Shown: positions 1,557 to 46,384 of the stretch, piece after piece
Layout: each line of letters starts with the position of its first letter
Position numbering within the stretch: position 1 is the stretch's first letter
Origin: an uncultured Planctomycetia bacterium
GTDB taxonomy: Bacteria; Omnitrophota; Gorgyraeia; 2-02-FULL-51-18
DNA: 64,000 nt
Assembly: GCA_964373505.1 (NCBI GenBank)
Contig: CAYJVC010000003.1
Span: 11,336 to 75,335 of the forward strand
Direction of reading: 5' to 3'
Notes under the pieces: model-generated
The model's input: only the letters and a program-made list of their open reading frames with translations
What the model was told of the DNA's origin: nothing
The model's database searches: none
Made by a program: the position numbers and the translations under genes

Positions 1557-1664
1557 CGCTTCGACAGCCCCATTCGTTCTCGCGTCACTCAAGGAGCGCT
1601 GCGAGCGAATGGGGCGCCGCGCGTCTTGCGCGTCACCCGCGGATGCCACAATTGGAGGAAAACT

Positions 1665-2465: not shown

Positions 2466-2487
2466 TGTGGATTACGCGGATTGAAGT

Positions 2488-2533: not shown

Positions 2534-2562
2534 AATCTGCGAAATCCACTTAGGTTTATAGG

Positions 2563-3645: not shown

Positions 3646-3648
3646 CCC

Positions 3649-6465: not shown

Positions 6466-6542
6466 CGTCTACAGTAATTGCAATCCATGCCCAAAATAGA
6501 TACAATACAGTGAAAGTATAGAATTTTCAGGAGAGGGATCCC

Positions 6543-7250: not shown

Positions 7251-7327
7251 GTTACGTAAAACTGACCCACAACACCTCTAAAGTCCTCACGGCCGCAACG
7301 TTTCTTCTTATTATTGCCGGAGGGCTC

Positions 7328-23574: not shown

Positions 23575-24430
23575 GGCCCACAACACTCCCGATCCGGCTC
23601 AAATTCCGTATCACGTGCACTCCTTTTTTTTCGAGCGAGGAAATTTTCTCCTGCGCCGTGCCCGAGGAGCCGGAAATAATAGCGCCCGCGTGGCCCATGC
23701 GTTTGCCCGGCGGCGCCGTTATGCCGGCAATAAACGCGAAAACCTCTTTCTTCATATTTTCCTGAATGAAATGGGCGGCCTCTTCTTCCTGACTGCCTCC
23801 GATCTCCCCGATGAGAAGCACCGCCCGGGTCTGGGGATCTTTCTCAAACATCTCCAAGAGCTCAATGAAGCCCGTGCCGATCACAGGGTCCCCGCCGATA
23901 CCGATGCAGGTCGTCTGGCCAAGTCCCGCCGAGCTCAATTGCCACACCGCCTCATAGGTCAAGGTGCCGCTTCGCGAGATCACGCCGATATCGCCTTTTT
24001 TATGGATATAACCCGGCATGATGCCGATCTTGCACGTTTCGGAGGTGATAATTCCGGGGCAGTTGGGCCCGATAATTCGGGCGCCCCGGGCCTTGGCATA
24101 TTCCACCGCCTTCACCATGTCCAGCGTAGGAATACCCTCCGTGATGCAGACGAGAAGTTCTATCCCGCCGTCCACGGCCTCTATGATCGCCGATAAGGCA
24201 AACGGCGCCGGGACATAAAGCATCGAAGCGATCGCGCCTGTTTTCTCGACGGCCTCCCGGACCGTATTGAACACGGGGATCGTTCCGACAAAACTGCCCC
24301 CTTTCCCGGGGGTCACTCCCCCCACAAGCTTTGTGCCGTACTCCAGGCATTTCTGGGAATGAAAACTGCCGGCCTTTCCGGTGATCCCCTGGCAAATGAC
24401 TCGTGTGTTCTTATCAACGAGTATCGGCAT
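23564..24430 (-). CDS. sucD: Succinyl-CoA synthetase alpha subunit
   Basis: VICQGITG and CoA-binding motifs. Overlaps the sucC stop. The ORF-track start at 24493 has a spurious basic extension. Confidence 0.9.
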
Positions 24431-27622: not shown

Positions 27623-29455
27623 TCAAGCAAATTGGGAGGTCTGGATCTTATAGGGAACGGTATTTTGAGAATCCGCGTTGGTGATCAAAAGGTATACCTT
27701 TCGGATATCCTTCGCTTGAAGCCCTTCCTTTTTAATTTCCTCTTCAAGCGATAGTCGATTGCCTGGATTCCGTCTGATAACCAAACCGCCCTTCGTCACC
27801 AAGATGGCCTGCACGGTGAGCGGCTTGTCCAACGATCCCGTGGAGACAGCCAGTTCGGGTAAAGAAGCCGTGCCCTTGGCAATGTTTATTTCGTAATAAT
27901 CTGTCGCCCATCCTGAAACATCGCTCCGGTCCGAGCTGTCCCCCGCGACAGACGACTCCCCGTGCCTGGCCCGGCGATCTCCCCAGCCTCCGATCCAGTC
28001 GGTCTCGCAGACCGCCCCCAAGAGCCTTTCCGAGCCATAACCGTCCTTTAAATAAAACGCGCGCTTGCGGTATACGAGCTTCGTTTTGGCGACGTCCTTT
28101 AAAAAGACGACGTCATCTTTGAGTTCAAAGTCTTTCAGGAGGATGGCCAGCGCAAATTCTTTAAGAAGGCCCGCGAAAGGGGTGCCGGTGACCCTTTCAA
28201 GCGCCGGCTTAAAATTCTCCGGATCGACGCCTCGAAATTCGCGGCTTAAGCGTTCGATCGAAGACATGCCGTAGCGAGTATCGATAAAGCGCCAAAAAAG
28301 CGCATTCTCGTACCGCAACTCCATGAACGACTGGTCCGGATAGCACATGAAATAATTAGCGCCGCCGCGGGAGAATCGTATCTTATCGGGCAGCACCTGT
28401 TTGAACCCTTGCGAATAAAAATCATGCCGTGCGCCCGCAAAGGTCTCAAAATATCGGGCGAGCCCCTCCACGTACCAATCCAATTTTTTGACGGGTGCCT
28501 GTTGCTTGGAGCCGTCAAATTCCTTGTTGAGGTTGCGGTTGTAATAAAACAAGACCACGTGGAGCATCTCGTGAATCAGCGTGCCGCGAAGGTCCACGTC
28601 GATATTCCGGGCCCCGAGCGGCGACGGATTGATGAGCTCCCAATTCCGGATAAAATCGCTGTAGTTCGCGGGCAATAGGATCACCGCGTTAAAGCCTGTC
28701 TTAGAAACGCGGGTCGTGTCAAAACAGGGCGCGTCCTTGAATGAGGCGGCGTTGAATCCGTGAGTGGGGAAGTTCTGGGTTTGATCGGGATTTCCTAAAT
28801 AAATGTCGATAGTCTTGTCCGGGTCGTACGCGTATTTTCTACGCGGCGACACGAATGAAAAACCGTCCGTGTTGAATCCCTGGGACTGGGTGATGATCTG
28901 ATAGGCGGATACGGCGGCGTCCAGCACCTCTTTTGGGAAAGTTGGCCCCTGGCGGCTCTCCTCCAAGAGCTGGTCCGTGAAATAAACCCTGATGGATGCG
29001 CCGTCCGGAAACCGGTGTTCATAAACCTTTTCAAGGGTGCGGTGTGCGGCCAGCGTTTTGCCGTTGCCTTTGATCACAAGCCGGCCTGTGAAACTCTCTT
29101 TGGCGGGGGTGACCGTCAGCCGTCCCTGCCTGAGCGAATTCAAGTGCACATTCCAAACTCTTTTGCCCTTGGTGTCTTTCAAAGCCTCCAGGTGGCCATC
29201 CGCGCGCTGCACGTAGCCCCACACCCTCACACTTTGCCAGGGTTTCCAATGGCAGGCGATACTTTGAGCGCGTTCGATCGAAATGATCAGGGGGGTGCTT
29301 TTTTCAGGATCGCTTAGGTTGATCTGGGAATAGGAATGGCTTTGGGATCTTTCTTGAGCGGCTGAGACTTCGCGGCAACTCAGGCCTAAAACAACCATGA
29401 GGGCCGCCATGAGAAAACGAACCTTGCAAGATCGCCGCATGTCCTTATCCTTCAT
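27623..29455 (-). CDS. Large secreted protein with an HEXXH...E motif (putative gluzincin-like metallopeptidase)
   Basis: Signal peptide, HEMLH at the Zn site and a downstream EGLARYFE. Start uncertain: it could be 29440, 29455 or 29515. Confidence 0.45.
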   Translation of the reverse strand: MKDKDMRRSCKVRFLMAALMVVLGLSCREVSAAQERSQSHSYSQINLSDPEKSTPLIISIERAQSIACHWKPWQSVRVWGYVQRADGHLEALKDTKGKRVWNVHLNSLRQGRLTVTPAKESFTGRLVIKGNGKTLAAHRTLEKVYEHRFPDGASIRVYFTDQLLEESRQGPTFPKEVLDAAVSAYQIITQSQGFNTDGFSFVSPRRKYAYDPDKTIDIYLGNPDQTQNFPTHGFNAASFKDAPCFDTTRVSKTGFNAVILLPANYSDFIRNWELINPSPLGARNIDVDLRGTLIHEMLHVVLFYYNRNLNKEFDGSKQQAPVKKLDWYVEGLARYFETFAGARHDFYSQGFKQVLPDKIRFSRGGANYFMCYPDQSFMELRYENALFWRFIDTRYGMSSIERLSREFRGVDPENFKPALERVTGTPFAGLLKEFALAILLKDFELKDDVVFLKDVAKTKLVYRKRAFYLKDGYGSERLLGAVCETDWIGGWGDRRARHGESSVAGDSSDRSDVSGWATDYYEINIAKGTASLPELAVSTGSLDKPLTVQAILVTKGGLVIRRNPGNRLSLEEEIKKEGLQAKDIRKVYLLITNADSQNTVPYKIQTSQFA

Positions 29456-29594
29456 TCTGGTTAACCCAGACGTTCGGCAAACTTCGAAAACCGGACAAGG
29501 ACACTGATCCGCCAAAGGACATTCGTCCTTCGGCGAATTGTCAGCAACCCAGCCGCCCTATTCCCCCTTGATGGGGCCGAATGTAGGCCTGTCG

Positions 29595-29912: not shown

Positions 29913-30443
29913 TTAGTAACGTCTTCTAGAGGAACTACGTGCATCCCTGGCCCCGTCTACCTGAATCTCTATCTGCAGGTGTCCTTCGGCATTCATCTTG
30001 GAAGAAAGCTGTGTCCCTTTTCCCACATAAACGATCGCCAGTTCAGCTCGCGAACCGTCCAAAAATACATAAGGAATATTGTTATCGTCTGAGAGCGTAT
30101 TTTGGATCTTCTGCCGCCAGCTATCCTCCGTTACCGGCTCTTCCTCGCGGCCGCCCGGCGCATCTATCACAACGATGTGGTCGCCGTCTTTTCTTCTTGG
30201 GTATAAAAAGTTGCCGCCGCCGGAGTTGAAAATAAGCGCATCTGAAAACCGCCCGTGCATCGCATCCCGTCGTGAGCGTGACAAGCTCTCATAGGTGTAT
30301 TTGCCTGCCAGCACATGTCGTTTGATGTCGCCGATGTGTTCTTCAGCCTCTCGGCCCTTCAACACGACGAGCGCGTGCGCCTCGGTCGAGAGAAAAAGAA
30401 CGAGCCAAAACACCCAAAGAACTTCTTTGATGCGGCCAAGCAT
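29913..30443 (-). CDS. Secreted hypothetical protein
   Basis: N-terminal signal/anchor (LWVFWLVLFLSTEAHA). No recognisable motif. Confidence 0.4.
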   Translation of the reverse strand: MLGRIKEVLWVFWLVLFLSTEAHALVVLKGREAEEHIGDIKRHVLAGKYTYESLSRSRRDAMHGRFSDALIFNSGGGNFLYPRRKDGDHIVVIDAPGGREEEPVTEDSWRQKIQNTLSDDNNIPYVFLDGSRAELAIVYVGKGTQLSSKMNAEGHLQIEIQVDGARDARSSSRRRY

Positions 30444-31164: not shown

Positions 31165-31208
31165 AAAAAAAGGGCCCCGTCCGCCATTTGCGGCGGGCGG
31201 GGCTTTGA
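31165..31208 (-). terminator. GC-rich hairpin with a U tract downstream of the small transmembrane ORF
   Basis: GGCCCCGTCCGCC...GGCGGGCGGGGC, followed on the - strand by TTTTTTTCAAGC. Confidence 0.4.
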
Positions 31209-31228: not shown

Positions 31229-31366
31229 TTACTTCCGGTCAATCATTTTGGTGCCGAATAAAACCGCCAAAACGACCACCGCTGCCAGATACGGAGCAAG
31301 CTCAGCAGTGAATACGAGACCTAGAGTTATGCCGATCAACAGGCCCGTCAATATATCCGCTCTAAA
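31229..31366 (-). CDS. Small (45 aa) single-transmembrane protein, hypothetical
   Basis: GGGAGGTGATTCCC ribosome-binding site before the ATG (MFRADILTGLLIGITLGLVF...). It has its own terminator. The longer 31229-31456 ORF-track version has no ribosome-binding site. Confidence 0.3.
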   Translation of the reverse strand, partial: FRADILTGLLIGITLGLVFTAELAPYLAAVVVLAVLFGTKMIDRK

Positions 31367-31523
31367 CATGGGAATCACCTCCCAATCAGGAACACAGACT
31401 GTTCGTGTCCCGACCGACCCATCCTTACAGGCTCGATAGGCGTTCCTCCTTTCCAATCTGTCCCTCTACTCATAGTTTACCCTGGGCTACAACCGATTCA
31501 AGCGGAGCTTAAATTTGATTAAT

Positions 31524-32402
31524 TTATAAGCTTAATGTTATGAATGAGTTAGTGGGAAGTCTACGCCGAAGCCAGGTGCCTATGCGGTCGAGCACAAGAG
31601 CGCGATCTATTTCATTCAACACTTCATGGTAAAATCCGTCAAATATTTCAATTTCTTTCGGTTGATCCCCAAGCCTCTCATAGAATGAAAGCGCGTCTTT
31701 CTTGGATACTATGAGATCATCGCCCGCCTGGACGAGCAGAACCGGGCAATCAATGCGAACGGCGATCTCTCCGGCTTTACGGCATAGGCGCTTTATTTCA
31801 TGATAGAGCCGGGCGCTGATGCCGCGGTAAACAAGCGGGTCCTGCAGGTAACGCTCGACGATCGCTCGGTCGTGAGTCAGGTATTTAGGGTTTAATCCGG
31901 TCGCTTGGGTAAAATTGGGGAAAAGACAGGAGGCTAAAATGCCCAGGCCCCGTCTCCAAAACGGCACTTTCACCCTAATACCAAAGCAGGGAGAGCTCAA
32001 GACGAGTCCGGCAAGCCCAGGATGCGGAACGAACGCAGCATAAGAAGAAGCTATCAATCCGCCCAGACTATGGCCCAATAAAAAAATGGGCGTGTTTTTC
32101 TGCTCGCACAGCGCCACGCGGTGCAGGGCTAACAGGTCCTCATGGTAATCTGAAAAAGCCCGGACACACGCGCGCCGTCCGCCGCTTCTCCCAAAACCGC
32201 GCAGATCCGGAACGAATACCTGCACACCCCATTGGGCCAGTGTTTCAGCCACAAAACAGTACCGGCCGCCGTGCTCGCTCAAGCCATGAACAAGGATGAA
32301 CGTCGCACTAGGCTTTGAGGAGGGGGTTAGACGTTGATAAAAAATAGCCGTTTTATCGAAAGACAAAAACCGGTGCTCGCTCCAAGCCGGGAGACCCCCC
32401 AC
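31524..32402 (-). CDS. Alpha/beta-hydrolase (lysophospholipase / monoacylglycerol-lipase-like)
   Basis: HGLSEHGGRY and the GHSLGG nucleophile elbow. Confidence 0.7.
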   Translation of the reverse strand: MGGLPAWSEHRFLSFDKTAIFYQRLTPSSKPSATFILVHGLSEHGGRYCFVAETLAQWGVQVFVPDLRGFGRSGGRRACVRAFSDYHEDLLALHRVALCEQKNTPIFLLGHSLGGLIASSYAAFVPHPGLAGLVLSSPCFGIRVKVPFWRRGLGILASCLFPNFTQATGLNPKYLTHDRAIVERYLQDPLVYRGISARLYHEIKRLCRKAGEIAVRIDCPVLLVQAGDDLIVSKKDALSFYERLGDQPKEIEIFDGFYHEVLNEIDRALVLDRIGTWLRRRLPTNSFITLSL

Positions 32403-32407
32403 GGTCT

Positions 32408-34117
32408 TTAGACTCCCTCTTTCTCATAAAAAGGGAGCAATCTGTCCCGGTAACGGGAGAGCACCGTATCGCGCTTCACCTTAAGCGTCGGCGTAAGCTC
32501 GCCTGCGGATTGGCTGAAATCATGCTCCAAGAGCGCAAAGTATTTTATCCGCTCGAAACTAGCCAAGTCCTGGCAAAGCGCCTGGATCTTTTGATCCATC
32601 CACCCGTAGACCCTTGGGTTCCTCAAAAGATCTCCCAGGTCACGATAGGCGATCTTGTCAGCGTCGGCGTATGCCATGACCTTTTCTGCGCGGGGAACGA
32701 TGAGCGCACTGATGAATTTCTTGCCCTCGCCGAAAAGCACACACCGCAGGATACAGGGGTCATTTTCGATCATTTCCTCGATCGCGCGGGGCGCTATCTT
32801 TTTTCCGCCGGAGGTGACGATCAGCTCTTTTTTCCGCCCGGTGATCACGAGGAAGCCTTCCTTGTCGATCAAACCCAGATCGCCCGTGTAAAACCACCCT
32901 TCCTTTAAGACTTCGCGCGTCTCCTCCGGCTTATTCCAGTAGCCCTTCATCACGCATTCGCTTTTTGTGACGATCTCGCCCTCCCCGGTGATCCGTACCT
33001 CGACGCCGTCGAGCGGAAGGCCCACGCTCCCGAACTTGTAGCGCTCCTGGCGGTTCGCGCTTATCACCGGCGCTGTTTCGCTCAAACCGTAGCCTTCCAG
33101 TATCACAACGCCCAGGTCCGCAAAAAACTCGGCGGTTTCTTTCGGAAGCGCGGCGCCCCCCGAAACGCAGAAGCGCACCCGACCGCCCAGGCGCATCCTG
33201 AATTTCCATCGGATAAACCAAAAAAGAAGTCGTTTTTTAAACGGGCTCAGTTTCTCGAGGGTCTCCGATACCCGTGCCTTTATTTTTTCATAAAACCTCG
33301 GCACGCCCAGGATAAATGTGGGCCGCACTTCCAGAAGATCCCGGGCGACACTGTCCATATTTTCGGCATAAGAGATCCGGGCGCCGATCATGATCATTAA
33401 GTAATGGCCCGCGAGCCTTTCGAAAACGTGCGAGAGCGGCAGGAATGACAAGTGCACGTCCGATTCGCTCATTTGGAGAGCCTTTTTACAAAAAAATGCG
33501 TTATGAATAAAGTTAGAGTGCGTCAGCATCACCCCTTTCGGGAAACCGGTCGTGCCGGAAGTATAAATAAGGCTCGCGACCGCGTCGGCGGGGATCGTGC
33601 GGATCCTTTGGTCCAGGTCCGCCGCGTCCGAAACCTCGCTTTCAAGCTCCTTCAAGAGCTCGAAATTCACGCTCAAATTTTCTTTCGACAAAGAAAGCGA
33701 CGCGTCAAAACCCACGACCGTTCTCAGCATCGGCAGAGAGCGGTGGATAGGCACCAGTTTTTCGAACAGCTCTTTGCTGGATACCGCCACGAGCGCCGCG
33801 CCGCAGTCGGACAAGATGTATCGGATCTCATTCGGGGTGAGCGACGTATAGACCGGCACCGTGATGACTCCCACGCATTGCGCCGCCAGATCCACGCAGG
33901 CCCACTCAGGCCTGTTCTCCGACAGGATCGCGATCCGGTCACCGGGAGCCAAACCTCTTTTAAGAAGCGCGGATGCCACCGAGTCCACTTTTTTTGAAAG
34001 CTCAAGCCACGTGAGCGACTCTATGCGGCCGCCCCGCTTTGAGGATAAAGCGGTTTTATCAGGAAATCGCCGGACGGTTTCTTTGAAGACAGAAGCGAGA
34101 TTCTGGGGGATCATCAA
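32408..34117 (-). CDS. Long-chain fatty-acid--CoA ligase (AMP-binding)
   Basis: AMP-binding motif IYTSGTTGFPKGV and the C-terminal GWFYTGDLG box. Confidence 0.85.
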   Translation of the reverse strand: MMIPQNLASVFKETVRRFPDKTALSSKRGGRIESLTWLELSKKVDSVASALLKRGLAPGDRIAILSENRPEWACVDLAAQCVGVITVPVYTSLTPNEIRYILSDCGAALVAVSSKELFEKLVPIHRSLPMLRTVVGFDASLSLSKENLSVNFELLKELESEVSDAADLDQRIRTIPADAVASLIYTSGTTGFPKGVMLTHSNFIHNAFFCKKALQMSESDVHLSFLPLSHVFERLAGHYLMIMIGARISYAENMDSVARDLLEVRPTFILGVPRFYEKIKARVSETLEKLSPFKKRLLFWFIRWKFRMRLGGRVRFCVSGGAALPKETAEFFADLGVVILEGYGLSETAPVISANRQERYKFGSVGLPLDGVEVRITGEGEIVTKSECVMKGYWNKPEETREVLKEGWFYTGDLGLIDKEGFLVITGRKKELIVTSGGKKIAPRAIEEMIENDPCILRCVLFGEGKKFISALIVPRAEKVMAYADADKIAYRDLGDLLRNPRVYGWMDQKIQALCQDLASFERIKYFALLEHDFSQSAGELTPTLKVKRDTVLSRYRDRLLPFYEKEGV

Positions 34118-34899
34118 CTATCGGTAAACTTGGGTTGCCGTTTCTCGAGAAACGCGCGGATACCCTCTTTCATGTCGTTCGTGGATGCGATGGCCTTAAA
34201 TTCGTTTTGCTCTATTTTCAGGCCTTCCTCCAGAGAAACATCCAGGCCCCGCGCGATGGCACGCATCGAAGCCCGGATCGCGGGCAGGCCGTGACGCGCG
34301 ATTTTTTTGGCGATCTCTCCGGCGGTTTTTAAAAGCGCACCGTCCGACACGACGCGATTCACCAGGCCGATCCGGAATGCTTCCTGCGGCGTGATGAGAT
34401 CTCCGGTCAAAATGAGCTCAGCCGCGCGGCTTGGGCCCACCATCCTCGGAAGGCGCTGCGTGCCGCCAAAACCCGGAATGATGCCCAGGGTGATCTCAGG
34501 CTGCGCGAAGCGCGTTCGGTCGGAAGCGATCCGGAGGTGGCAGGCCATCACAAGCTCCTGGCCGCCGCCGACGCAGGCGCCCTGGATCGCCGCGATCACG
34601 GGCTTCTCGGATCGCTCGATCTTATTGAATACGTCCTGCCCCCGGCGCACCACTTGTAGGATCTCCTCCTCGCTACGGAGCTGAGCCATCTCTTTTAGGT
34701 CCACGCCGGCTATAAAGACGTTCTGTATCGCACTGGCTAGGATGATGACTTTGATCTTAGGGTCCCGCTCGAATTGATCTAGGGCCTCTTCCAGCTCGTC
34801 AAGAAGCCGGCGGCCAAGCGCGTTGACCGGCGGTCGGTTGATCTTTACGTTCGCCACGCCTCCTTCGGTCGCGATTTGAATGAACTGAAAATCAGACAT
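34114..34899 (-). CDS. Enoyl-CoA hydratase (crotonase family)
   Basis: Crotonase fold (AAIQGACVGGGQELVMACHLRIAS). Confidence 0.85.
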   Translation of the reverse strand: MSDFQFIQIATEGGVANVKINRPPVNALGRRLLDELEEALDQFERDPKIKVIILASAIQNVFIAGVDLKEMAQLRSEEEILQVVRRGQDVFNKIERSEKPVIAAIQGACVGGGQELVMACHLRIASDRTRFAQPEITLGIIPGFGGTQRLPRMVGPSRAAELILTGDLITPQEAFRIGLVNRVVSDGALLKTAGEIAKKIARHGLPAIRASMRAIARGLDVSLEEGLKIEQNEFKAIASTNDMKEGIRAFLEKRQPKFTDS

Positions 34900-34907
34900 G
34901 GCTCACC

Positions 34908-36134
34908 TCACGCATATTCGATAAACCCGCGGTTTGTCTTTTTGCCCAAAAAGCCGCCGCCCGCCATCCTTTTGATCAAGGGCGCCGGGAAAAACCTTTC
35001 CCCGTAAGCGTCATACAGCTTCTTAAGCTCGCTCAATACCCGATCGATCCCGAGCGAATCGGCGTACTGCAAAAGCCCTCCTTTGCTTTGAGGAAATCCG
35101 ATGCCGGCAATCACGGCAATATCGATATCGCCCGGCGAAGCGATGCGCTCCTGGATGCAAAAAGCCGCTTCATTGATCATCGAAAGCACAAGGCGCTCCG
35201 GGGAGAACGGGAGTTTCTTCGACGACACGTAGGATTTCTTAAGCCCCGTTAGGAGCTCCTCCACCGTTTTATCGTCGGCGGGTGCCGAGGCGTTGTAATT
35301 GTAGAACCCCGCCCCGCTTTTAACGCCGTATCGTTTTCGCTGGTGGATCTCGTCCCACAAAAGCGCGGGCCGCATGCGGTTCCCGTATTCCTCCAAAAGG
35401 ACCCCGACAACGTCGTGACAGATATCGAGACCGATCGTGTCGACGAGCGTGAAGGGCCCCATCGGAAAACCGAAATCCACCATGGCTTTGTCGATCTGGG
35501 TGAGCGTCGCGCCGCCTTCTTCGGCCGAGAACGCGGCTTCATTCAAATAAGGCATGAGGAGTCTGTTGACGAGAAACCCCGCGCACTCATTTACGCGCAC
35601 CGGAATTTTTCTCAGGCCCTCCGAAAAAGCGATCGCATCCTGCACGGTCTCCTCGGAAGTCGCAAGGCCCGGGATCACCTCCACGAGCTTCATGACATTG
35701 GCCGGATAAAAAAAATGAAGGCCTACGACCTTATCGGGACGCTTGGTCGCCGATCCCAAAGCGCTGATGGAGAGCGCGGAGGTGTTCGTGGCAATAATGG
35801 CCCCGGGCGCCAGCAGGCCGTCAAGTTCCTGGAACACCTTCTTTTTAAGCTCCGCTTTTTCGGGAACCGCTTCTATCGCGATATCTACTTCTTTTAAGTC
35901 TTCAAAACGCGTCGTGACGCTCACGAGCGCCATCTTCGAACCCATTACCTCGGCGGTCATCTTGCCCTTATCCACCCGCGACTGATAGACCTTGCGGATA
36001 TTGGACAGCGCCTTCTGCGCCAGTTCGTCATTTACTTCCTTCAAGATCACCGGAAGCCCCGAGAAACTGATGACTTGAGCGATCCCGGAGCCCATGGCGC
36101 CCCCACCCACTACGGCCGCTTTATAAATGAACAT
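34908..36134 (-). CDS. 3-hydroxyacyl-CoA dehydrogenase
   Basis: VVGGGAMGSGIAQV Rossmann motif and a C-terminal 3HCDH domain. Start taken at MFIYKAAVVG. Confidence 0.8.
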   Translation of the reverse strand: MFIYKAAVVGGGAMGSGIAQVISFSGLPVILKEVNDELAQKALSNIRKVYQSRVDKGKMTAEVMGSKMALVSVTTRFEDLKEVDIAIEAVPEKAELKKKVFQELDGLLAPGAIIATNTSALSISALGSATKRPDKVVGLHFFYPANVMKLVEVIPGLATSEETVQDAIAFSEGLRKIPVRVNECAGFLVNRLLMPYLNEAAFSAEEGGATLTQIDKAMVDFGFPMGPFTLVDTIGLDICHDVVGVLLEEYGNRMRPALLWDEIHQRKRYGVKSGAGFYNYNASAPADDKTVEELLTGLKKSYVSSKKLPFSPERLVLSMINEAAFCIQERIASPGDIDIAVIAGIGFPQSKGGLLQYADSLGIDRVLSELKKLYDAYGERFFPAPLIKRMAGGGFLGKKTNRGFIEYA

Positions 36135-36138
36135 GGGT

Positions 36139-37344
36139 CTAGTTCCTCTCCAGCACCACCGCCGCGCCCTGGCCGCCGCCGACGCAGAGCGATGCAAGCC
36201 CGTAGCGCAATTTCCTTTTTTTCATCTCATTCAGGAGCGTCAGCACGATCCGCGTTCCCGTGGTGCCCACCGGATGGCCGACGGCGATCGCGCCTCCGTT
36301 CACATTCATGAGTTTCCGGTCGAGCCCCAGTACCTTCTCGCAGGCGATCACCTGCACCGCGAACGCCTCGTTGAGTTCGATGAGCTGAATATCCTTTAAG
36401 CCCAAACCCGCTTTCTTAAGCGCCAAAGGAATGGCCACGGTAGGGCCGATCCCCATCCGCTCCGGCTCGACGCCTCCGAACGCGTAGGCCTTGACCGTGC
36501 CCAGTATTTCCTTGAAGCCAAGCGCCGCCGCTTTTTTGCGCGTCATGATCAAAAGCGCCGCCGCGCCGTCGGAGATCGTGCATGAATTGCCGGGCGTTAC
36601 GGTGCCATTTTCCATGAAGGTGGTGGGATACAGCGCCAAGGCTTGCTCATTCAAGGCAGGGTTCGGGCCCTCGTCCTGCATGACGATATCGGGCGGCATC
36701 GGGCGTCCGGCCGCTTTTTTCTGCACCGTGACGGGTGTGATCTCGTCCTTAAACTTGCCTTCGCGCGTGGCGCGGAAAGAGCGCTGGTGGCTTTGAACCG
36801 CGTATTGGTCCTGTTCGGCGCGGCCAATCCTGAATTCGCGCGCCAAATTCTCGGCCGTGCGGCCCATGAGCTGGCCGCAGATCGGGTCCGTGAGCCCTTC
36901 CCACAAAGAATCCACCATCTCGGAATTGCGCAGACGCTTCCCGAAGCGGAGGTCGCGGCTCACGTAGGGTTGGCTGGACATCGATTCCGTGCCACCCACG
37001 ATCTGTACGTCCGCATCGCCGGATAAAATGTTCTGGCAGCCGTTCACAAGCGACTGGATGCCGGAAGCGCAATTCCGGGCCACCGTGTATCCAGGCACCG
37101 TTTTCGGAACGCCCGCCAAGAGCGATATGACTCTGGCGATGTTCGGCGCATCGCTGGCCTGCCCCACGCAGCCGAAGATCACCTCATCCACTTGCGCGGG
37201 ATCAAGCTTCGTTCTGTCCAGAAGCGCGCGCACGGCGATCTCGCCCAGTTTCTGGGCCGTAAAGTCCCGGAACGCGCCTCCCAGAAGCCCCTGCGGGGTG
37301 CGCACGCCGTTCACGATCACAATTTCATTTTCATTCATAGCCAC
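36139..37344 (-). CDS. Acetyl-CoA acetyltransferase (thiolase)
   Basis: Thiolase signatures NCASGIQS, NVNGGAIAVGHPVGTTG and CVGGGQG. Confidence 0.9.
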   Translation of the reverse strand: MAMNENEIVIVNGVRTPQGLLGGAFRDFTAQKLGEIAVRALLDRTKLDPAQVDEVIFGCVGQASDAPNIARVISLLAGVPKTVPGYTVARNCASGIQSLVNGCQNILSGDADVQIVGGTESMSSQPYVSRDLRFGKRLRNSEMVDSLWEGLTDPICGQLMGRTAENLAREFRIGRAEQDQYAVQSHQRSFRATREGKFKDEITPVTVQKKAAGRPMPPDIVMQDEGPNPALNEQALALYPTTFMENGTVTPGNSCTISDGAAALLIMTRKKAAALGFKEILGTVKAYAFGGVEPERMGIGPTVAIPLALKKAGLGLKDIQLIELNEAFAVQVIACEKVLGLDRKLMNVNGGAIAVGHPVGTTGTRIVLTLLNEMKKRKLRYGLASLCVGGGQGAAVVLERN

Positions 37345-37359
37345 CTCGCTGAGCTTATT

Positions 37360-39453
37360 CTATGCCATGTTCTGCTGCGAAACCAGCGCTTTGATCTTCG
37401 GAAGCATTTTGACGGTTTCTTCCTCGCCCTTTTTGATGAACGGTTGAGGTTTGAAAAACTCGACCCAACTGGCATTCGCCATGACGGGACGGATCACGAG
37501 GTCCGCGGCCTCGCTTTCGATCTCGGAGATCTGGGCCTCCATCGACTGGATCGTGTTCATCAATATATCGAACACGTTCGGGAAAAAAGCTTTGGAGCAT
37601 AATTTTTTCAACTGATGGGCAGACCTGAACAGGAAATTTTTACGACGAATAGTGCGAGCTTCCTTCTCTTCCTCCTCTTCGCGCATGAGGCGGCGTTCCA
37701 GAATATCTTTGGAGGTCGGGAACACATTCACGGCGATGATTTTGTTGGCGCCGGCCTGCTGCAGCGCCCCGATCGGGAGCGGGCTTAAGATCCCCCCGTC
37801 CACGATCATCTGTTTGTTCAGAAAAACCGGCTTAAAGATTGCGGGGATCGCGATCGAGCCGCGCACGGCCTCCGCGATATAACCGGAATCGTAAATATGC
37901 GCCTGGCGCGTCGAGAGATTGGCGCCCGTGACCTTCAGCGGGATCTTCGCTTCTTCGAACGTCTTGTTGCCCAGGTAGGAACTAAAATGTTTGACGACGA
38001 GCTTCCCGTGCAGAAGACCGCGCACCGGGAACAGGTTGAAATCCAAAAGCCGTATCATGCCGAGTTGGGTGTTGATCTTGAGCGCGATCTTTTCCACTTC
38101 GGCGGCCGTCTTCCCCACCGCATACAGAGACCCGATCAACGCACCGATGCTGGAGCCGGCAATAATATCGATCGGAATATTCTCGCGCTCCAACACTTTC
38201 AGGACCCCGACGTGCGCCAACCCCAGCGCCGCGCCGCTGCCGAACGCCACGCCCACCAGATTGTTGCTGATCCGCCTGGCGATGTGGCGCACGACGCGCG
38301 AATACTCGGCTAGCGGGTCATCCACGACGAACGGCGCCGAATGGCGCTCCTCGTATTCTTTCAATTCCGGGGTGGCCGGAAGCGAATAACTCATTTTGCT
38401 TCCGAAAAGCTCCCGCCGCACTGCGTGCGTCGTGCGCATCCCGAGAAAAACTTCGCTGATCACGATCGAGATCTTGCTTTCCGGGAACGAGAGATCCTTT
38501 TCAATATCCTGGATCAGCTCCTTGGTTTCCGTGATATTGTTGAGATTGCTGTCGGTCACAAAATAAATGGAGTCCGACTGGCTGAGCGCGCGGTGCACCC
38601 CCTCGTCCATTTCGGAAGGCAGGTCGATCAGGATAAAACGGTACTCGATCGCGAGATGATTCAGAAGCGAAATAATGATTTTTTCTCCGGCCGAGTCCTC
38701 CCCTTCGTGAGCGACATTCAAAATATCGAATCCGGCCGGATGTTTCAAAATTAGGTCGTTCAGAACACCGGCGGATTCGTTTTCGATATTGTGGAATCGC
38801 GTGATCGGCACGCGCTCGGCCATATGAAGCTTGGAGGAGATCTCGGTGCCGGACGGGCTCATGTCCAGAAGGATTATTTTTTGGCGTGTTTCCTGAAAAA
38901 GACTCGCGGCCAGATTGATGGAGAATTCGGTCCGCCCGATGCGGTGCTGCTGGCTGAAAATGGATATCACATCGCTTCTTAAAAGGAGCCTCGATCGCGT
39001 CTCCACGCCGCGCAAGCGCGAGCTCAACCGCCGACTGATCTCGAGAGAAACCGTGGCGTTGTGCTCGATCGTCCTTTCAAAATCCTCTTTTTTAAGTTCC
39101 AGCACCAGCGAGTCCGAGAGAGCGCACAACGTGGCTGAATGGGGTTCGCTCGTCAGGAGCGACATTTCTCCGAAATAATCTCCGCGGCGCAAATACGCGA
39201 GCACCTTTTTCTTTCCCTGAGAAACGGTGAAGGCCTCGAAACGCCCCGAGATCACCACGCGAAAGCGGTCCGCCTGCTCCCCCTCGCGGTAGATCACTTC
39301 GTCCTTGTGGTATTCCACCAGCCGCATCAGCTGGCCGATCGATTTCAATTCCCACGGGCTCAAGCCCGAAAAGAGCGGACAGAGGGACAAGAGCGCCATC
39401 TTGTCGAGTTTCTGATAGCGGGGATTGTTTTCGGAACCGAGGGAGGGATCCAT
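37360..39453 (-). CDS. Three-domain protein: cyclic-nucleotide-binding (CAP-type) domain, a degenerate ParA/MinD-like domain and a patatin-like phospholipase
   Basis: cNMP domain GEQADRFRVVISGRFE...GDYFGEMSLL. Central ILLDMSP...FILIDLPSE resembles a ParA fold without a P-loop. Patatin GVAFGSGAALGLAHVG (G-G-x-R-like), GSSIG (GxSxG) and DGG. Confidence 0.8.
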   Translation of the reverse strand: MDPSLGSENNPRYQKLDKMALLSLCPLFSGLSPWELKSIGQLMRLVEYHKDEVIYREGEQADRFRVVISGRFEAFTVSQGKKKVLAYLRRGDYFGEMSLLTSEPHSATLCALSDSLVLELKKEDFERTIEHNATVSLEISRRLSSRLRGVETRSRLLLRSDVISIFSQQHRIGRTEFSINLAASLFQETRQKIILLDMSPSGTEISSKLHMAERVPITRFHNIENESAGVLNDLILKHPAGFDILNVAHEGEDSAGEKIIISLLNHLAIEYRFILIDLPSEMDEGVHRALSQSDSIYFVTDSNLNNITETKELIQDIEKDLSFPESKISIVISEVFLGMRTTHAVRRELFGSKMSYSLPATPELKEYEERHSAPFVVDDPLAEYSRVVRHIARRISNNLVGVAFGSGAALGLAHVGVLKVLERENIPIDIIAGSSIGALIGSLYAVGKTAAEVEKIALKINTQLGMIRLLDFNLFPVRGLLHGKLVVKHFSSYLGNKTFEEAKIPLKVTGANLSTRQAHIYDSGYIAEAVRGSIAIPAIFKPVFLNKQMIVDGGILSPLPIGALQQAGANKIIAVNVFPTSKDILERRLMREEEEEKEARTIRRKNFLFRSAHQLKKLCSKAFFPNVFDILMNTIQSMEAQISEIESEAADLVIRPVMANASWVEFFKPQPFIKKGEEETVKMLPKIKALVSQQNMA

Positions 39454-39460
39454 CTATTGA

Positions 39461-39817
39461 TTAACGATGTTCGATATAGTCCTTAAGTATCCCCTGGTCT
39501 TTTTCGCTTATATCCGGAAAGTAAACCGCGACGTTATATTTTTTGGTGGCTGGATCGTGTTCCTTGCGGACCACGACCCCTTTCAAGCGCAGCGTGTGTT
39601 CTTGCGGCCGAGCGGAACCCATCGCGGGCACCCGCAGCCCGATCTTAAGCTGCGTCATGAGCGGGATGTCCCGCTCTAGGGCACACATTGCGCCATGCGT
39701 GGATACATTCAGCGTTCGGGCCTCGATCTCGTAGCCCTCATGGCCGATGTTAAAGGGCAGGCCTGCATCGATACGAACCGAGCGGCGGCGCTCAAGGATC
39801 GGTTTGGGTGTTCTCAC
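39461..39817 (-). CDS. PilZ-domain protein
   Basis: ERRRSVRID (RxxxR) and NVSTHGAM (D/NxSxxG). The short version starts at a GTG that overlaps the upstream stop as GTGA. The ORF-track version (to 39922) adds a low-complexity basic tail. Confidence 0.5.
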   Translation of the reverse strand: MRTPKPILERRRSVRIDAGLPFNIGHEGYEIEARTLNVSTHGAMCALERDIPLMTQLKIGLRVPAMGSARPQEHTLRLKGVVVRKEHDPATKKYNVAVYFPDISEKDQGILKDYIEHR

Positions 39818-40074
39818 GCGGGTTTTTGCTCTGGGCTTTGGGCGGCGGACGCCTTGGCGGCGGCTTCCTCGGCGGCCTTCACGGCTTTTTCCGCTTCCTG
39901 TTTCACCCAGAGTTTGAAGCACTGCTTATTCGCAAAATATTTGCCGTTCCGGTAATACCAGTCCTTGCGGCGAATGCGTTTATTGGACTGGGCACAATTG
40001 GTCGGCCTGGATTTCTGCGCCTCCACGTTCCCGCTCGCGGGCTTTGGATCCTGTTTCACTGCTGCATCTTCCAT
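39814..40074 (-). CDS. Small hypothetical protein (86 aa, KDWYYRNGKYFANKQCFKLW core, Ala/Glu/Lys-rich tail)
   Basis: Non-repetitive core sequence. Its TGA stop overlaps the PilZ GTG start. Confidence 0.35.
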   Translation of the reverse strand: MEDAAVKQDPKPASGNVEAQKSRPTNCAQSNKRIRRKDWYYRNGKYFANKQCFKLWVKQEAEKAVKAAEEAAAKASAAQSPEQKPA

Positions 40075-40148: not shown

Positions 40149-40517
40149 TCAGCCGATCCCGACGGCGTGCACGTACTCAAGAATGTGACGCAATTCCATG
40201 GGTTTGATATCCCTGAAACGCAAGCCCGCTTCGCGTAATTCGCGGTCCGTGCCTTTCGTGCGCACAAACCAGACGACCTCCCCTACGGCCGTCACGGGCT
40301 CTACCAGATGAGGGATCTGTATCCCCAATTCCAGCAAGTCTCCGGCCCGCAGATCCTCATAGACCACGAGGCTGATACCGCCTCCGCCGACATCCTTGAC
40401 AAGCGTCTTATGTGGGCGCGGCCGTTTATGCTTTTTTAGAATATGATAGGTGACACCCAGGGGTGCTTTCAAGCGGATGTATTTGCGTTTTTCTGCTGCG
40501 CCTGCGCTCATGTTCAA
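40149..40517 (-). CDS. PilZ-domain protein
   Basis: EKRKYIRLK and DVGGGGIS motifs. Confidence 0.65.
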   Translation of the reverse strand: MNMSAGAAEKRKYIRLKAPLGVTYHILKKHKRPRPHKTLVKDVGGGGISLVVYEDLRAGDLLELGIQIPHLVEPVTAVGEVVWFVRTKGTDRELREAGLRFRDIKPMELRHILEYVHAVGIG

Positions 40518-40930
40518 TGCTCGGGGCCTGATTCCCCCGTTCTTAGGGCGCTATGCTTCAGCCATTCCTTGTAAACATGCTCCAGGACCCGGGCGCGGTC
40601 CTTCAGGTTGATCTTTGTCAGTTTAAGACCCGCTTCCAGACCGTCGGCCCAAGCCACTTTCCCTGTCGCGAATACAGGCAGATTGTCGCCGGGAACGCTC
40701 ATAGAAAGCTCGAGCGTCGTGCCCACCGGCAATTTCTGCTTGGTTTTGACGCATAACCCCTCGCGGCTCAAGTCCTTCGCCAGCGCCTTTCCGAAAATGG
40801 GATTCAGTGTTAACGTCTTGTATTCGACGTCCATCGGCGTGTTGAAGCGCATGTATTTCCGCCGTTCCAGAATTTTTCGTTTGGCCGCCTCGTAAGCGTG
40901 CGTCAATGGGTCCCCCTCCGGATTAGTCAT
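40514..40930 (-). CDS. PilZ-domain protein
   Basis: ERRKYMRFN and DLSREGLCV motifs. ATGA overlap with the downstream PilZ gene. Confidence 0.65.
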   Translation of the reverse strand: MTNPEGDPLTHAYEAAKRKILERRKYMRFNTPMDVEYKTLTLNPIFGKALAKDLSREGLCVKTKQKLPVGTTLELSMSVPGDNLPVFATGKVAWADGLEAGLKLTKINLKDRARVLEHVYKEWLKHSALRTGESGPEH

Positions 40931-41132
40931 TCTTAAAATAACGGATTAAATCGCTTTTCAAAAAACGGTAATTGTCCCCCACTTTGCGTCCCGGAATTTT
41001 CTTCGATTTCACCAGCTTGTAAAGCGTCTGACGGCTGATGCTGAGGAATTGACAGGCGTCCTCCGTGGTCAGCGCCTTGTCCTCTTCCCTCTCTTCGACC
41101 ATCCATTTTTTATTCATGTCTTGCTCCTCCAA
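40923..41132 (-). CDS. Helix-turn-helix DNA-binding protein (excisionase / MerR-like HTH_17)
   Basis: ACQFLSISRQTLYKLVKSKKIPGRKVG helix-turn-helix. Confidence 0.55.
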   Translation of the reverse strand: MEEQDMNKKWMVEEREEDKALTTEDACQFLSISRQTLYKLVKSKKIPGRKVGDNYRFLKSDLIRYFKND

Positions 41133-41234
41133 AAATACTGCCCCGTGGGGATTTTCATTTAAACAAAACGGTCGAATCTTGTCAAGTAAATACCAATTCA
41201 GTTAATAGCTGTTAATCTTAGACGCGGCTATGTA

Positions 41235-41309: not shown

Positions 41310-41636
41310 TTAAAAAACGTATTCAGGCTCCAGGATAGGCTTGTAATCCTGAGGCAGCGGAAACGGGAACGTTGCTATCTCATAGATACCGGCGCCCGTG
41401 CGCACAATGGTCATCCCGGCGCCCTTCGCGAGGCCGAGCGTCACTCCCGCGAACGCATTTTCCTCAACGCTCACGCTGTAAATATTCTTCGGAAGCTCCA
41501 CCCAGCCGGTCAGCGCATTCGCCACCCCGCGACCTAGCTTGGTGAAAGCGTCATTCGCGAAACAAACGGTTGCGCCGGCTATCATGGCGACGAAAATCAC
41601 GCCCATAACAACACCCTTCAAGGCGCCTCTTTTCAT
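41310..41636 (-). CDS. Exosortase-system-associated small secreted protein (TIGR04073-like)
   Basis: Signal peptide plus KLGRGVANALTGWVELPKNIY, the hallmark of that family as I recall it. Not verified. Confidence 0.5.
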   Translation of the reverse strand: MKRGALKGVVMGVIFVAMIAGATVCFANDAFTKLGRGVANALTGWVELPKNIYSVSVEENAFAGVTLGLAKGAGMTIVRTGAGIYEIATFPFPLPQDYKPILEPEYVF

Positions 41637-41800
41637 CCATCCCTCCTCACACAAGAATTGCTTAGAATTAAATAGAAGCTTATACTTTTTGTACTGCGAT
41701 CATCTTAACAGAATTCAGGGCCCTGTCAACACTTATTTTCGATTTTACCACTTTACAATGCGACCGGCCGGAGTTAGAATGGCGTTATTCTACCAAAAAT

Positions 41801-42619
41801 ATGTACGAATCTTTCTACTCCCTCAAGCAAAAACCGTTCGCGATCACGAGCAATCCCGCTTTTTTGTATTTAAGCCAAAGACACCGAGAGGCCTTGTCCT
41901 CTCTGAGCTACGGGATCAGGGAGCGTGTCGGATTTATCGAGATCACCGGCGAGATCGGAACCGGAAAAACCACGATCTGCCGAGCGCTCTTGAACCAACT
42001 CGACGAAAAAACTAAGACCGCGTTTATTTTCAATTCGAGCCTCAGCGAACTGCAGCTTTTACAAACCATCATCGAAGATCTGGGGATCAAGACCGGCAAA
42101 AAAAGCCGCGGCGAGCTGTTCTCGGAACTTAACCGCTTTCTGATCGAGCAATTGGCCCACAACAACAACGTCGTGGTGATCATCGACGAGGCCCAGAACT
42201 TGAGCCTGCGGCTCTTGGAGCAGATACGCATGCTCTCGAACCTGGAGGCGGAAAATAAAAAACTGCTGCAAATCGTCCTCGTGGGCCAACCGGAGCTCCG
42301 GGAAAAACTGAAATCCCCGAAACTGCGACAGCTTCGGCAAAGGATCTCGGTGCGTTATCACATCAAGGCGCTGGACAAGGAAGAAGTGCCGCGTTATATC
42401 GAGCATCGCTTGAAATTGGCCGGGGCCAATGGCGCGGCGCCTGTTTTCGAGGAAAAAGCGGTGGATGATATCTTTCGATATTCGGGAGGCGTCCCGCGAC
42501 TCATCAACATCGTGTGTGACAAAGCGCTGCTGACGGGATTTGTGTTGGAAAAACGGGTGATCGGGCCGTCGATCATCAGACAATGCATCAACGAAATTGA
42601 AGGAGAAAACACCTCATGA
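41801..42619 (+). CDS. ExeA/GspA/MshM-like AAA ATPase (PEP-CTERM / T2SS-accessory type)
   Basis: N-terminus FITGEIGTGKTT and the conserved FYSLKQKPF motif. Confidence 0.75.
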   Translation: MYESFYSLKQKPFAITSNPAFLYLSQRHREALSSLSYGIRERVGFIEITGEIGTGKTTICRALLNQLDEKTKTAFIFNSSLSELQLLQTIIEDLGIKTGKKSRGELFSELNRFLIEQLAHNNNVVVIIDEAQNLSLRLLEQIRMLSNLEAENKKLLQIVLVGQPELREKLKSPKLRQLRQRISVRYHIKALDKEEVPRYIEHRLKLAGANGAAPVFEEKAVDDIFRYSGGVPRLINIVCDKALLTGFVLEKRVIGPSIIRQCINEIEGENTS

Positions 42620-45724: not shown

Positions 45725-46384
45725 TCACCGCCAATCCGCCTCAAAAAACGGGCCTTGGCCGCCGAGGGCAGTGAGCTTGTGAGCGTGATACTGGACTCTG
45801 ACGCCCAGCCAACCCTGGCTCCGCTGGATGAGACGAGACCTAAGCTGCCGGGAAACCCCTTCTAACAACGGGTCGGAAATGAAAATGAGCGCATGGAGCT
45901 TCAGGATCCCGGACGAACCGAGCGTCAAACCTCCTTTAAGGTTAAGCTCCGAGGAAGCACATTCCAAGAGATGATAACCGAGGCGGCCGGGTTTTTGCGT
46001 GACACTGACCTTGAACCGCTCCATGCTGAGCGGTCGGTTCAGAAAGTCCGCTTTTGAAAGAAACGGCACAGAGCCTGAGGGGATGAAACCCGCGGGAAAT
46101 ACGAGATCCTCAAGCTGCAGGACGAGCTCTCCTTTGCCCAGCTTGACGAGGCCGGGCCCAGAGACTACCGGACCCGGGTGAGCGTCGGTGAATATCTCCA
46201 AAGAATCGAAGCGTACCCGATTCCAATGCTTGACGCTGGCGCGGCGAAACCGAAGCGTCAGGCCCGAGCGCTTGGAAAAAAAGGCGGAAACGGCAGAATC
46301 GACCCATCCGCCCTCCCAAGTGACCCGAGTGCTCAGCGCAAGGGCGATCACGACGAGAAGAAGCGCTGTGAAAAGTTTCCTCAC
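45725..46384 (-). CDS. Hypothetical exported protein
   Basis: N-terminal signal/anchor. No recognisable motif. Confidence 0.4.
   Translation of the reverse strand: MRKLFTALLLVVIALALSTRVTWEGGWVDSAVSAFFSKRSGLTLRFRRASVKHWNRVRFDSLEIFTDAHPGPVVSGPGLVKLGKGELVLQLEDLVFPAGFIPSGSVPFLSKADFLNRPLSMERFKVSVTQKPGRLGYHLLECASSELNLKGGLTLGSSGILKLHALIFISDPLLEGVSRQLRSRLIQRSQGWLGVRVQYHAHKLTALGGQGPFFEADWR

Follow-up and report, generated by a model that had tools for sequence, protein, structure and literature searches.

A patatin protein with cyclic-nucleotide-binding-like and TadZ-like domains, encoded in a conserved lipid-gene operon of Omnitrophota

Why would a patatin lipase, predicted to be cytoplasmic, carry a cyclic-nucleotide-binding (CNB) domain at its N-terminus and the remains of a ParA/MinD-type ATPase at its centre, and why would it be encoded among fatty-acid genes? 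The gene that raises this question lies at positions 37360-39453 on the minus strand of a 64,000-nucleotide stretch of contig CAYJVC010000003.1 (hereafter the window, meaning that whole stretch), which is deposited under an uncultured Planctomycetia bacterium and assigned by GTDB to Omnitrophota. An earlier note on this DNA, made from its letters alone, took the gene and its neighbors for a membrane-lipid turnover module under second-messenger control. The lipid-turnover part of that reading is supported by a tight lipid-catabolic operon with phylum-wide synteny, while gating by a cyclic nucleoside monophosphate (cNMP) is not. The account that we favor, and to which we give somewhat better than an even chance, is that of a chromosomal, vertically inherited lipid-turnover operon of Omnitrophota, in which a ligand-regulated cytoplasmic patatin lipase or phospholipase feeds co-transcribed fatty-acid activation and oxidation.

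The 697-aa product has the architecture that the earlier note had proposed, a cNMP-binding domain followed by a ParA-like domain and a patatin, as borne out by Pfam, an AlphaFold2 model and a Foldseek comparison of that model with the PDB. Pfam places cNMP_binding at residues 46-132 (E = 1e-24), AAA_31 at residues 161-318 (E = 3.7e-6, with 27.4 bits against a cut-off of 27) and Patatin at residues 403-563 (E = 2e-31). The structural model, built from 67 homologs, reaches a mean pLDDT of 85.9 and a pTM of 0.84, and at that pTM the interdomain arrangement is modeled confidently. There is no visible signal peptide or transmembrane segment in the protein. More than 100 full-length homologs of about 690 aa were found, whose named sources are nearly all metagenome-assembled genomes of Candidatus Omnitrophota and whose records call them 'NTE family protein' or 'patatin-like phospholipase'; both NCBI and a Logan contig contain a protein identical to the window product. 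With each GTDB species represented by a single genome, a scan recovered a relative in 275 genomes, and the residue counts given below come from alignments of 78 species-level sequences (x/78) and of 67 sequences (x/67).

The C-terminal domain (residues 399-693; 37375-38259, minus strand) is a patatin lipase domain of the RssA/PlpD-like kind with its catalytic residues intact. It carries the oxyanion loop GSGAALG, the nucleophile motif GSSIG (Ser435) and the motif DGG (Asp552), and the dyad positions Ser435 and Asp552, together with Gly553, are invariant across the family (78/78). In the oxyanion loop, G407 is likewise kept in 78/78 sequences and S406 in 74/78, and the usual Arg or Lys is replaced by Leu or Phe. 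Because these catalytic motifs are invariant in 78 sequences, we predict that the enzyme is active. Its fold is closest to that of PlpD from Pseudomonas aeruginosa (5fya; TM-score 0.85, E = 9.5e-19), with which it shares the GxSxG and DGG dyad, and its last 295 residues can be aligned with almost the whole of RssA from Escherichia coli (positions 5-299 of the 301 in model NF007623, against residues 399-693), yet at 134.2 bits they score far under the equivalog cut-off of 272. Unlike RssA and PlpD, the window protein has an oxyanion box without Arg or Lys, and whereas PlpD is the secreted passenger of a type-Vd autotransporter, the window protein appears to be cytoplasmic and has two extra domains.

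At the other end of the polypeptide, the CNB domain (residues ~18-150; 39004-39402, minus strand; Pfam cNMP_binding) has the expected fold of an eight-stranded beta-barrel flanked by helices, as supported by Foldseek matches to CRP, GlxR and PKA-R. Its phosphate-binding cassette (PBC), FGEMSLLTSEPHSA, is non-canonical. The Gly-Glu pair of the cassette, in which contact is made with the ribose 2'-OH, corresponds to G95-E96; across the family the Gly is found in 78/78 sequences and the Glu in 57/78, being lost in 21/78. The Arg that holds the cyclic phosphate in PKG and PKA is absent, and H105 aligns exactly with it (HMMER); every sequence in both alignments (67/67 and 78/78) has His at this position. 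The earlier note had called the protein cyclic-nucleotide-gated and had made this claim depend on the conserved cassette residues, of which half are there: the window protein has the Gly-Glu, and the Arg is replaced by His throughout the family. In PKA RI-alpha, the single substitution R209K lowers cAMP affinity about 10-fold (PMC2246266), and a His at the Arg position of the cassette is also found in PDZ-GEF, as well as in CooA, where it serves as a haem ligand (PMC2246266). Trypanosomatid PKA-R subunits that have lost the Arg bind nucleosides in place of cAMP (PMC10959531). Gating of the patatin enzyme by a cNMP is, on the strength of the cassette residues, unproven, and an invariant His beside a drifting Glu possibly marks a new ligand specificity for CNB domains.

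Between sensor and enzyme lies a MinD/ParA-fold domain of the CpaE/TadZ type (residues ~158-396; 38266-38982, minus strand; AAA_31) in which the deviant Walker A motif is destroyed. Foldseek matches it to FlhG (4rz2), a ParA-family protein (3ea0) and MinD (1hyq, 4v02) with TM-scores of 0.73-0.81 at 16-20% identity. The earlier note was right that the P-loop has been lost, since the window protein reads QQHRIGRT where ParA (8ray) has QKGGVGKT (in the alignment, 'visifsqQHRiGRTefsinlaasl' against 'iicisnqKGGvGKTttainlaasl'). In the family as a whole, the P-loop Lys survives in 9/78 sequences and is Arg in 49/78; GK[ST] is kept in 12/67 and the signature KGG in 0/67. The Walker B Asp (D277, in FILIDLP) is present in 69/78. 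As some members still have GK[ST], decay of the P-loop can be traced within a single family, which documents a ParA/MinD-type domain turned pseudo-ATPase linker.

The origin of this central domain was sought by exhaustive phmmer over 1.84 billion representatives, which superseded a word-indexed homology search with the domain alone that had returned only four fragments. The ~690-aa family came first, followed by proteins of ~400 aa matched over residues ~140-385, which consist of a Response_reg domain and a ParA/CbiA/AAA_31 domain and retain [ST]KGG[VI]GK[TS], where the window protein has SQQHRIGRT. One of these relatives, P0166, is encoded in the order Flp-TadE-TadE-RcpC-[P0166]-T2SSE-T2SSF-T2SSF, that is, at the position of CpaE/TadZ. 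This position, together with the intact P-loop of the relatives, points to a TadZ/CpaE-type MinD-like domain that turned into a pseudo-ATPase once it had been fused. CpaE/TadZ proteins are the closest sequence relatives of the central domain outside its own family, and they share its general plan, in which a sensor-type domain at the N-terminus precedes a MinD-like domain; they differ from the window protein in that the latter has a C-terminal lipase, a CNB sensor, a destroyed P-loop and no tad genes nearby. Pfam searches of the open reading frames (ORFs) detected no tad genes in the operon or the 64-kb window, and the N-terminal domain is a CNB domain rather than receiver-like. TadZ/CpaE proteins are localized at the pole and position the secretion apparatus (PMC11407121).

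Taken as a whole, the closest concept to this protein is found in NTE/PNPLA6 and PNPLA7 and in Rv2565, a CNB-patatin esterase of Mycobacterium tuberculosis; what is new is the single CNB domain with its invariant His, the TadZ-type insert and the operon coupling to fatty-acid catabolism. The NTE family (PNPLA6/NTE, PNPLA7 and Drosophila Swiss-cheese, SWS) likewise has CNB domains ahead of a patatin (lyso)phospholipase within a single polypeptide. In contrast to these proteins, the window protein has one CNB domain instead of three, no visible membrane anchor, and a 240-residue MinD/TadZ-like pseudo-ATPase between sensor and enzyme; moreover, its cassette position is not simply degenerate but occupied by an invariant His, and its gene lies in an operon with genes for fatty-acid activation and oxidation. 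The CNB sites of PNPLA6/SWS are required for phospholipase function (PMC12710771). In SWS, CNB1 and CNB2, two of the three sites, have no PBC Arg, and CNB mutations still impair phospholipase function (PMC12710771).

Because nucleotide-activated patatins are also effectors of bacterial immunity, the earlier note had asked whether the role of the protein is metabolic or suicidal. As a CapV-type effector of a CBASS (cyclic-oligonucleotide-based anti-phage signaling system) or as a Pycsar effector, it would destroy the membrane in abortive infection when triggered by a nucleotide made upon infection. It shares with CapV, CapE and the Pycsar effectors the common idea of a nucleotide-activated lipid hydrolase or a CNB-fused effector, and such a role draws on a match of its CNB domain to the PycTIR sensor model (E = 3.7e-12; PADLOC), on weak matches of its patatin domain to CBASS phospholipase effector models (E = 1.3e-5; PADLOC) and on the presence of CapV and CapE among the Foldseek matches. 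These matches are at the level of single domains only, and the structural likeness is weak, with TM-scores of 0.52-0.65 for CapV and CapE against 0.85 for PlpD. A Pfam scan of the ORFs over 64 kb found no nucleotide cyclase of any class, including the CD-NTase, Pycsar, class III and GGDEF types, so that the nearby cyclases which the earlier note had suggested looking for are absent from the window, and with them any partner cyclase. Moreover, relatives occur in 275 species genomes, the top 80 being near full length, and their distribution is not patchy or island-like; the flanks examined are conserved housekeeping genes with fatty-acid genes adjoining, and the PBC Arg is missing. Base composition over the operon region is unremarkable, with no compositional anomaly. 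The housekeeping chromosomal setting and the lack of a cyclase nearby argue against a CBASS or Pycsar suicide role, which we consider extremely improbable, and a metabolic role is supported.

The metabolic setting is provided by five genes that follow the patatin gene on the minus strand. All six ORFs listed in the earlier note were recovered where it had placed them, and their domains were confirmed by Pfam. A thiolase (acetyl-CoA C-acyltransferase; 36139-37344; Thiolase_N and Thiolase_C, with TIGR01930 at 444.7 bits, above its cut-off) is followed by a 3-hydroxyacyl-CoA dehydrogenase (HCDH; 34908-36134; 3HCDH_N and two 3HCDH domains) of the long type that corresponds to the C-terminal half of FadB/FadJ. 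Gene starts in this unit were taken in part from gene calls on a contig identical to the window, and for HCDH such a call puts the start at 36134 within an ORF spanning 34908-36197. Next come an enoyl-CoA hydratase or crotonase (ECH; 34114-34899; ECH_1, E = 5.6e-72), a FadD-like fatty-acid--CoA ligase (acyl-CoA synthetase, ACS; 32408-34117; AMP-binding, E = 2.2e-84) and an alpha/beta hydrolase of the lysophospholipase/monoacylglycerol-lipase family (31524-32402; Hydrolase_4, E = 1.4e-62). The best NCBIfam matches of the ligase are FadD11 and long-chain-fatty-acid--CoA ligase, all under their equivalog cut-offs, and the Hydrolase_4 protein weakly matches lysophospholipase L2 (NCBIfam). Intergenic distances among the six genes range from -4 to 15 nt.

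Is this arrangement more than an accident of one genome? Neighboring genes were traced by tblastn of the window proteins against fetched loci, the best 80 of those in the 275 genomes, all near-full-length copies, and the fractions below refer to informative loci only, in identity bands of at least 55%, 42-55% and 30-42%. The first downstream gene on the same strand is a thiolase, HCDH or ACS in 56/68 loci, down to 35% identity (24/24, 1/4 and 31/40 in the three bands). HCDH and ECH lie within 4 kb downstream in 12/20 loci at 55% identity or above and in 26/32 at 30-42%; for ACS downstream, the corresponding fractions are 15/15 and 22/26, and for Hydrolase_4 they are 15/15 and 17/24. The association of the patatin gene with lipid genes is not due to chance. 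In the close clade, the flanks are also constant, with 3-dehydroquinate synthase (DHQS) upstream and malate dehydrogenase (MDH) and sucCD downstream, which argues for vertical inheritance in a housekeeping neighborhood. Some of the loci that share this gene and the synteny typical of Omnitrophota, at 60-70% identity, come from records titled 'uncultured Planctomycetia bacterium' and, in one case, 'Eisenbacteria' (L002, L003, L005, L007-L010 and others); these labels are probably placeholders or the result of mis-binning.

The earlier note had described the downstream genes as a complete beta-oxidation set, which they are not. Ligase, hydratase, dehydrogenase and thiolase of the fad set are all in the operon, and neither the window nor any of the close-clade loci has an acyl-CoA dehydrogenase (ACAD). 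Compared with the fad regulon (FadD, FadE, FadBA), the window operon likewise encodes a FadD-like ligase, a crotonase, a FadB-type dehydrogenase and a thiolase together, but it has two separate genes in place of one for FadB, lacks FadE/ACAD, like the other loci of this clade, and adds two lipases and signaling proteins. In 13 distant loci an ACAD gene does stand in the same operon, between ECH and ACS. Operons of the L034 type combine a short ACAD with several electron-transfer flavoprotein (ETF) subunits and an oxidoreductase resembling ETF-quinone oxidoreductase (ETF-QO), whereas L075 and its relatives have a 621-aa ACAD resembling very-long-chain acyl-CoA dehydrogenase (VLCAD) with an ACAD9/ACADV C-terminal domain. 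From these ACAD-bearing operons and the FadB/FadJ-type dehydrogenase, we infer an ancestral operon for full beta-oxidation from which ACAD was lost or relocated in this clade; the same two features favor the catabolic direction.

These distant operons have peculiarities of their own. In L034 (16478-20746) four consecutive ETF-domain ORFs, two of them beta-like, one short and one alpha, come after the ACAD gene, as does a FixC/ETF-QO-like flavoprotein, and the number of ETF genes exceeds the standard EtfAB pair. A D-2-hydroxyacid dehydrogenase gene stands between ECH and the VLCAD-like ACAD in L059, L062, L065, L075, L076 and L078 (15667-16680 in L075).

Without an ACAD, the thiolase, dehydrogenase and hydratase might in principle work synthetically, turning acetyl-CoA into crotonyl-CoA or 3-hydroxybutyryl-CoA, as in pathways to butyrate or polyhydroxyalkanoate (PHA). 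The window operon does hold a thl-hbd-crt-like set with no acyl-CoA dehydrogenase, and the best NCBIfam match of HCDH is '3-hydroxybutyryl-CoA dehydrogenase' (349 bits, under the cut-off of 408). Set against this, HCDH aligns with FadJ positions 305-700 (NCBIfam) and shares with FadB/FadJ an additional C-terminal domain, relatives place a VLCAD-like ACAD, ETF and an ETF-QO-like gene at the same position, and the partner genes are a FadD-type ligase and two lipases; in addition, the operon has no gene for a butyryl-CoA dehydrogenase, PHA synthase or CoA-transferase. We regard a synthetic role as very improbable.

A more serious competitor is membrane-lipid homeostasis or remodeling, in which the cell would deacylate its own phospholipids and the ligase would re-activate the acyl chains for re-incorporation, as with NTE/PNPLA6, leaving hydratase, dehydrogenase and thiolase as accessories of some lineages only. 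This is the main rival to a catabolic operon, though in our judgment still an unlikely one. It would account for the close-clade pattern, where ligase and Hydrolase_4 are each found in 15/15 loci against 12/20 for HCDH with ECH, and it is consistent with the lack of an ACAD in the window, with a patatin module that is RssA/NTE-like over its full length, and with an LPG_synthase_TM gene and the accB/accC lipid-synthesis genes in the same window. It sits poorly with the deeper clades, in which HCDH and ECH follow the patatin gene in 26/32 loci and several operons also include ACAD and ETF, a purely catabolic set, and with the finding of no acyltransferase gene in the operon by Pfam.

Several observations weigh against a catabolic, ligand-regulated operon. 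None of the large ORFs in the 64 kb has a Pfam match to Acyl-CoA_dh or ETF, and tblastn with ACAD and ETF queries from L034 and L075 gave no match in the window or in loci L001-L033, so that full beta-oxidation in this organism is unproven. In one subclade (L008, L014, L018, L020, L022, L024, L033 and L038) the patatin gene is followed directly by ACS and the hydrolase; the loss of thiolase, HCDH and ECH there fits lipid recycling as well as it fits catabolism. About seven further loci have the patatin gene with no lipid genes nearby, their neighbors being the housekeeping genes FKBP, ROK, BipA, MoaA and RlmN. Since the PBC Arg is absent and no cyclase is encoded nearby, control by a ligand is itself conjecture, and the literature that we searched held no enzyme assay on any member of this family.

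With these points in view, we propose a scheme in which substrate, ligand, direction of flux and scaffold role are all conditional. The patatin enzyme would free fatty acids from glycerolipids, which may be membrane phospholipid or stored or acquired lipid, and the Hydrolase_4 enzyme would take the second acyl chain off the lyso- or monoacyl product. Activation of the freed fatty acids would fall to the FadD-like ligase, and enoyl-CoA hydratase, FadB-type dehydrogenase and thiolase would shorten the acyl chains to acetyl-CoA, with the acyl-CoA dehydrogenase step supplied from elsewhere in this clade and by a gene of the same operon in distant relatives. The CNB-like domain may set the activity of the patatin, its ligand being either a cNMP bound weakly or pH-dependently through the His or another small molecule, whereas the TadZ/CpaE-derived pseudo-ATPase would most likely serve as a rigid coupling, dimerization or localization scaffold between sensor and enzyme. 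In this clade, three PilZ proteins and an HTH_17 protein encoded upstream may add cyclic di-GMP (c-di-GMP) and transcriptional control. The supporting context includes genes for a respiratory chain, MDH and sucCD in the window. The respiratory cluster (855-8964, plus strand) encodes a Rieske protein, a split cytochrome b, CtaA-like and UbiA/CtaB-like proteins and a multihaem cytochrome c of 938 aa, parts of which resemble FixO and cbb3; the cluster suggests a respiratory lifestyle for this member of Omnitrophota.

Could the lipid come from another cell? Many Omnitrophota have been proposed to be host-dependent nanobacteria. They have also been described as predatory (PMC12419801), and the TadZ-derived domain might dock the lipase at the pole or at a Tad-pilus contact site, where lipid imported from a host or prey would be degraded for energy. 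The kinship of the central domain with CpaE/TadZ of tad loci, its nearest relatives outside the family, points this way, as do the polar placement of TadZ/CpaE and its positioning of a secretion apparatus (PMC11407121) and the lipid-catabolic genes that adjoin the patatin gene. We think this quite unlikely, given that the protein has no signal peptide or secretion signal, that the window has no tad genes, that no lipid importer is evident in the operon and that the window presents an ordinary respiratory and biosynthetic repertoire. A related and still speculative idea, to which we attach little weight, is that the CNB domain senses a signal other than cAMP or cGMP while the TadZ-derived domain keeps the lipase tethered to the Tad apparatus or the cell pole, which would give ultra-small Omnitrophota a site of lipolysis, possibly of host lipids, that is confined in space and gated by the signal. 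The signal might be a lipid metabolite or acyl-CoA, a nucleoside, or a message relayed by the adjacent PilZ proteins.

For the favored lipid-turnover operon, the extent of the transcription unit matters as well. The earlier note was correct that the operon is tight, the gaps among its six genes being short, but the unit extends further at both ends, and the patatin gene does not head it, as five conserved genes precede it. Immediately upstream is PilZ1 (39461-39817, minus strand as for all genes of the unit; 118 aa; Pfam PilZ, E = 1.7e-12; motifs RRSVR and NVSTHG), which ends 7 nt before the patatin start. Its GTG start overlaps the stop codon of orf86 (39814-40074; gene call), a conserved 86-aa protein with the motif RRKDWYYRNGKYFANKQCF and a Lys/Ala-rich tail for which a Pfam search gave no match. 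For PilZ1, the 118-aa call and the separate orf86 were preferred to a longest-ORF model (39461-39922) of 153 aa whose N-terminus is rich in Arg. By tblastn, orf86 has copies in 40 loci, in each of which it precedes the patatin gene; these loci include distant clades, and a PilZ gene usually accompanies it. PilZ1 itself lies directly upstream (within 150 nt) in 25/26 loci at 55% identity or above and in 0/42 at 30-42%, and its adjacency is confined to clades above ~43% identity.

Further upstream are PilZ2 (40149-40517; E = 2.4e-9), with RKYIR but with DVGGGG, in which Ser is changed to Gly, and PilZ3 (40514-40930; E = 1.2e-11; motifs RKYMR and DLSREG), copies of which, 68-80% identical, are found upstream in close-clade loci. 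Canonical RxxxR and [DN]xSxxG motifs thus mark PilZ1 and PilZ3 as predicted c-di-GMP receptors, from which PilZ2 deviates. The first gene of the unit encodes a 64-aa HTH_17 DNA-binding protein (40923-41117; Pfam, E = 3.8e-16) whose stop codon overlaps the start of the next PilZ gene (ATGACTAA) and which is kept at the same position in 25 loci. A site read by eye at 41157-41185, with TTGACA (41185-41180), a 17-nt spacer and TTAAAT, is the putative promoter of the unit; it sits just past the terminator (41282-41252) of the preceding gene and was missed by the promoter scanner, which accepts only A as the second base of the -10 hexamer. A weaker scanner promoter at 41023-40996 was not taken as the unit promoter, as it falls inside the HTH_17 gene. 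The preceding gene encodes an exosortase-system-associated TIGR04073 protein (41310-41654, minus strand; 105.9 bits), is equipped with a promoter-like site and a strong terminator of its own, and is syntenic just upstream of the operon.

At the other end, a 46-aa hydrophobic peptide (31229-31369; read from the sequence) is the last gene, and this ORF is conserved 3' of the hydrolase gene in 16 loci. It is followed by an intrinsic-terminator-like hairpin with U7 (31165-31203; centroid -24.7 kcal/mol, z = -2.67), on the far side of which lies an M23 peptidase gene. The short gaps, the overlapping stop and start codons and the terminators before (41282-41252) and after (31203-31165) argue for a single transcription unit, probably of 12 genes from ~41185 to 31165, starting ~1.7 kb upstream of the patatin gene.

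Further second-messenger genes in the window are limited to those for a GAF-HD_5 protein and a DUF520/YajQ protein. The former, an HD-GYP-type phosphohydrolase (46381-47895, minus strand), adjoins a dGTPase-like protein with HD and HD_assoc domains (47902-49074, minus strand), and this pair, together with the three PilZ genes, suggests active signaling of the c-di-GMP type in this genome. The DUF520/YajQ-family protein (23071-23586, minus strand) is encoded just downstream of sucCD, and binding of nucleotides and c-di-GMP has been reported for this family.

Some neighboring genes deserve mention in their own right. An AAA_22 ATPase (ExeA/GspA-like, 272 aa; 41801-42619, plus strand) is divergently encoded and occupies the same position in most close-clade loci at 70-90% identity. 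Past the M23 peptidase gene downstream of the operon, a 630-aa protein (27623-29515, minus strand) and a 176-aa protein (29913-30443, minus strand), neither with a Pfam or PADLOC match, are syntenic in most close-clade loci. Elsewhere in the window, two adjacent paralogous GalT-like genes (GalP_UDP_transf / DUF4921 / DUF4931; 60767-61855 and 61765-62808, both minus strand) overlap by ~90 nt as longest ORFs.

Searches of the literature on Omnitrophota lipid enzymes and on bacterial CNB-patatin proteins found no description of this three-domain family. Patatins fused to sensors are medically important in animals, where PNPLA6/NTE is involved in neurodegeneration and ATGL-type lipolysis is under cAMP control. 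The family described here would be a compact, soluble bacterial counterpart with a single CNB domain, for which the fatty-acid oxidation genes of the same operon would offer a read-out. If lipolysis is indeed spatially confined and gated, it would represent a novel way of regulating bacterial lipases, and polar tethering of a lipase would be a new use of the ParA/MinD positioning module. More generally, for Omnitrophota, of which we know of no cultured free-living representatives, the patatin gene provides a conserved marker of lipid metabolism.

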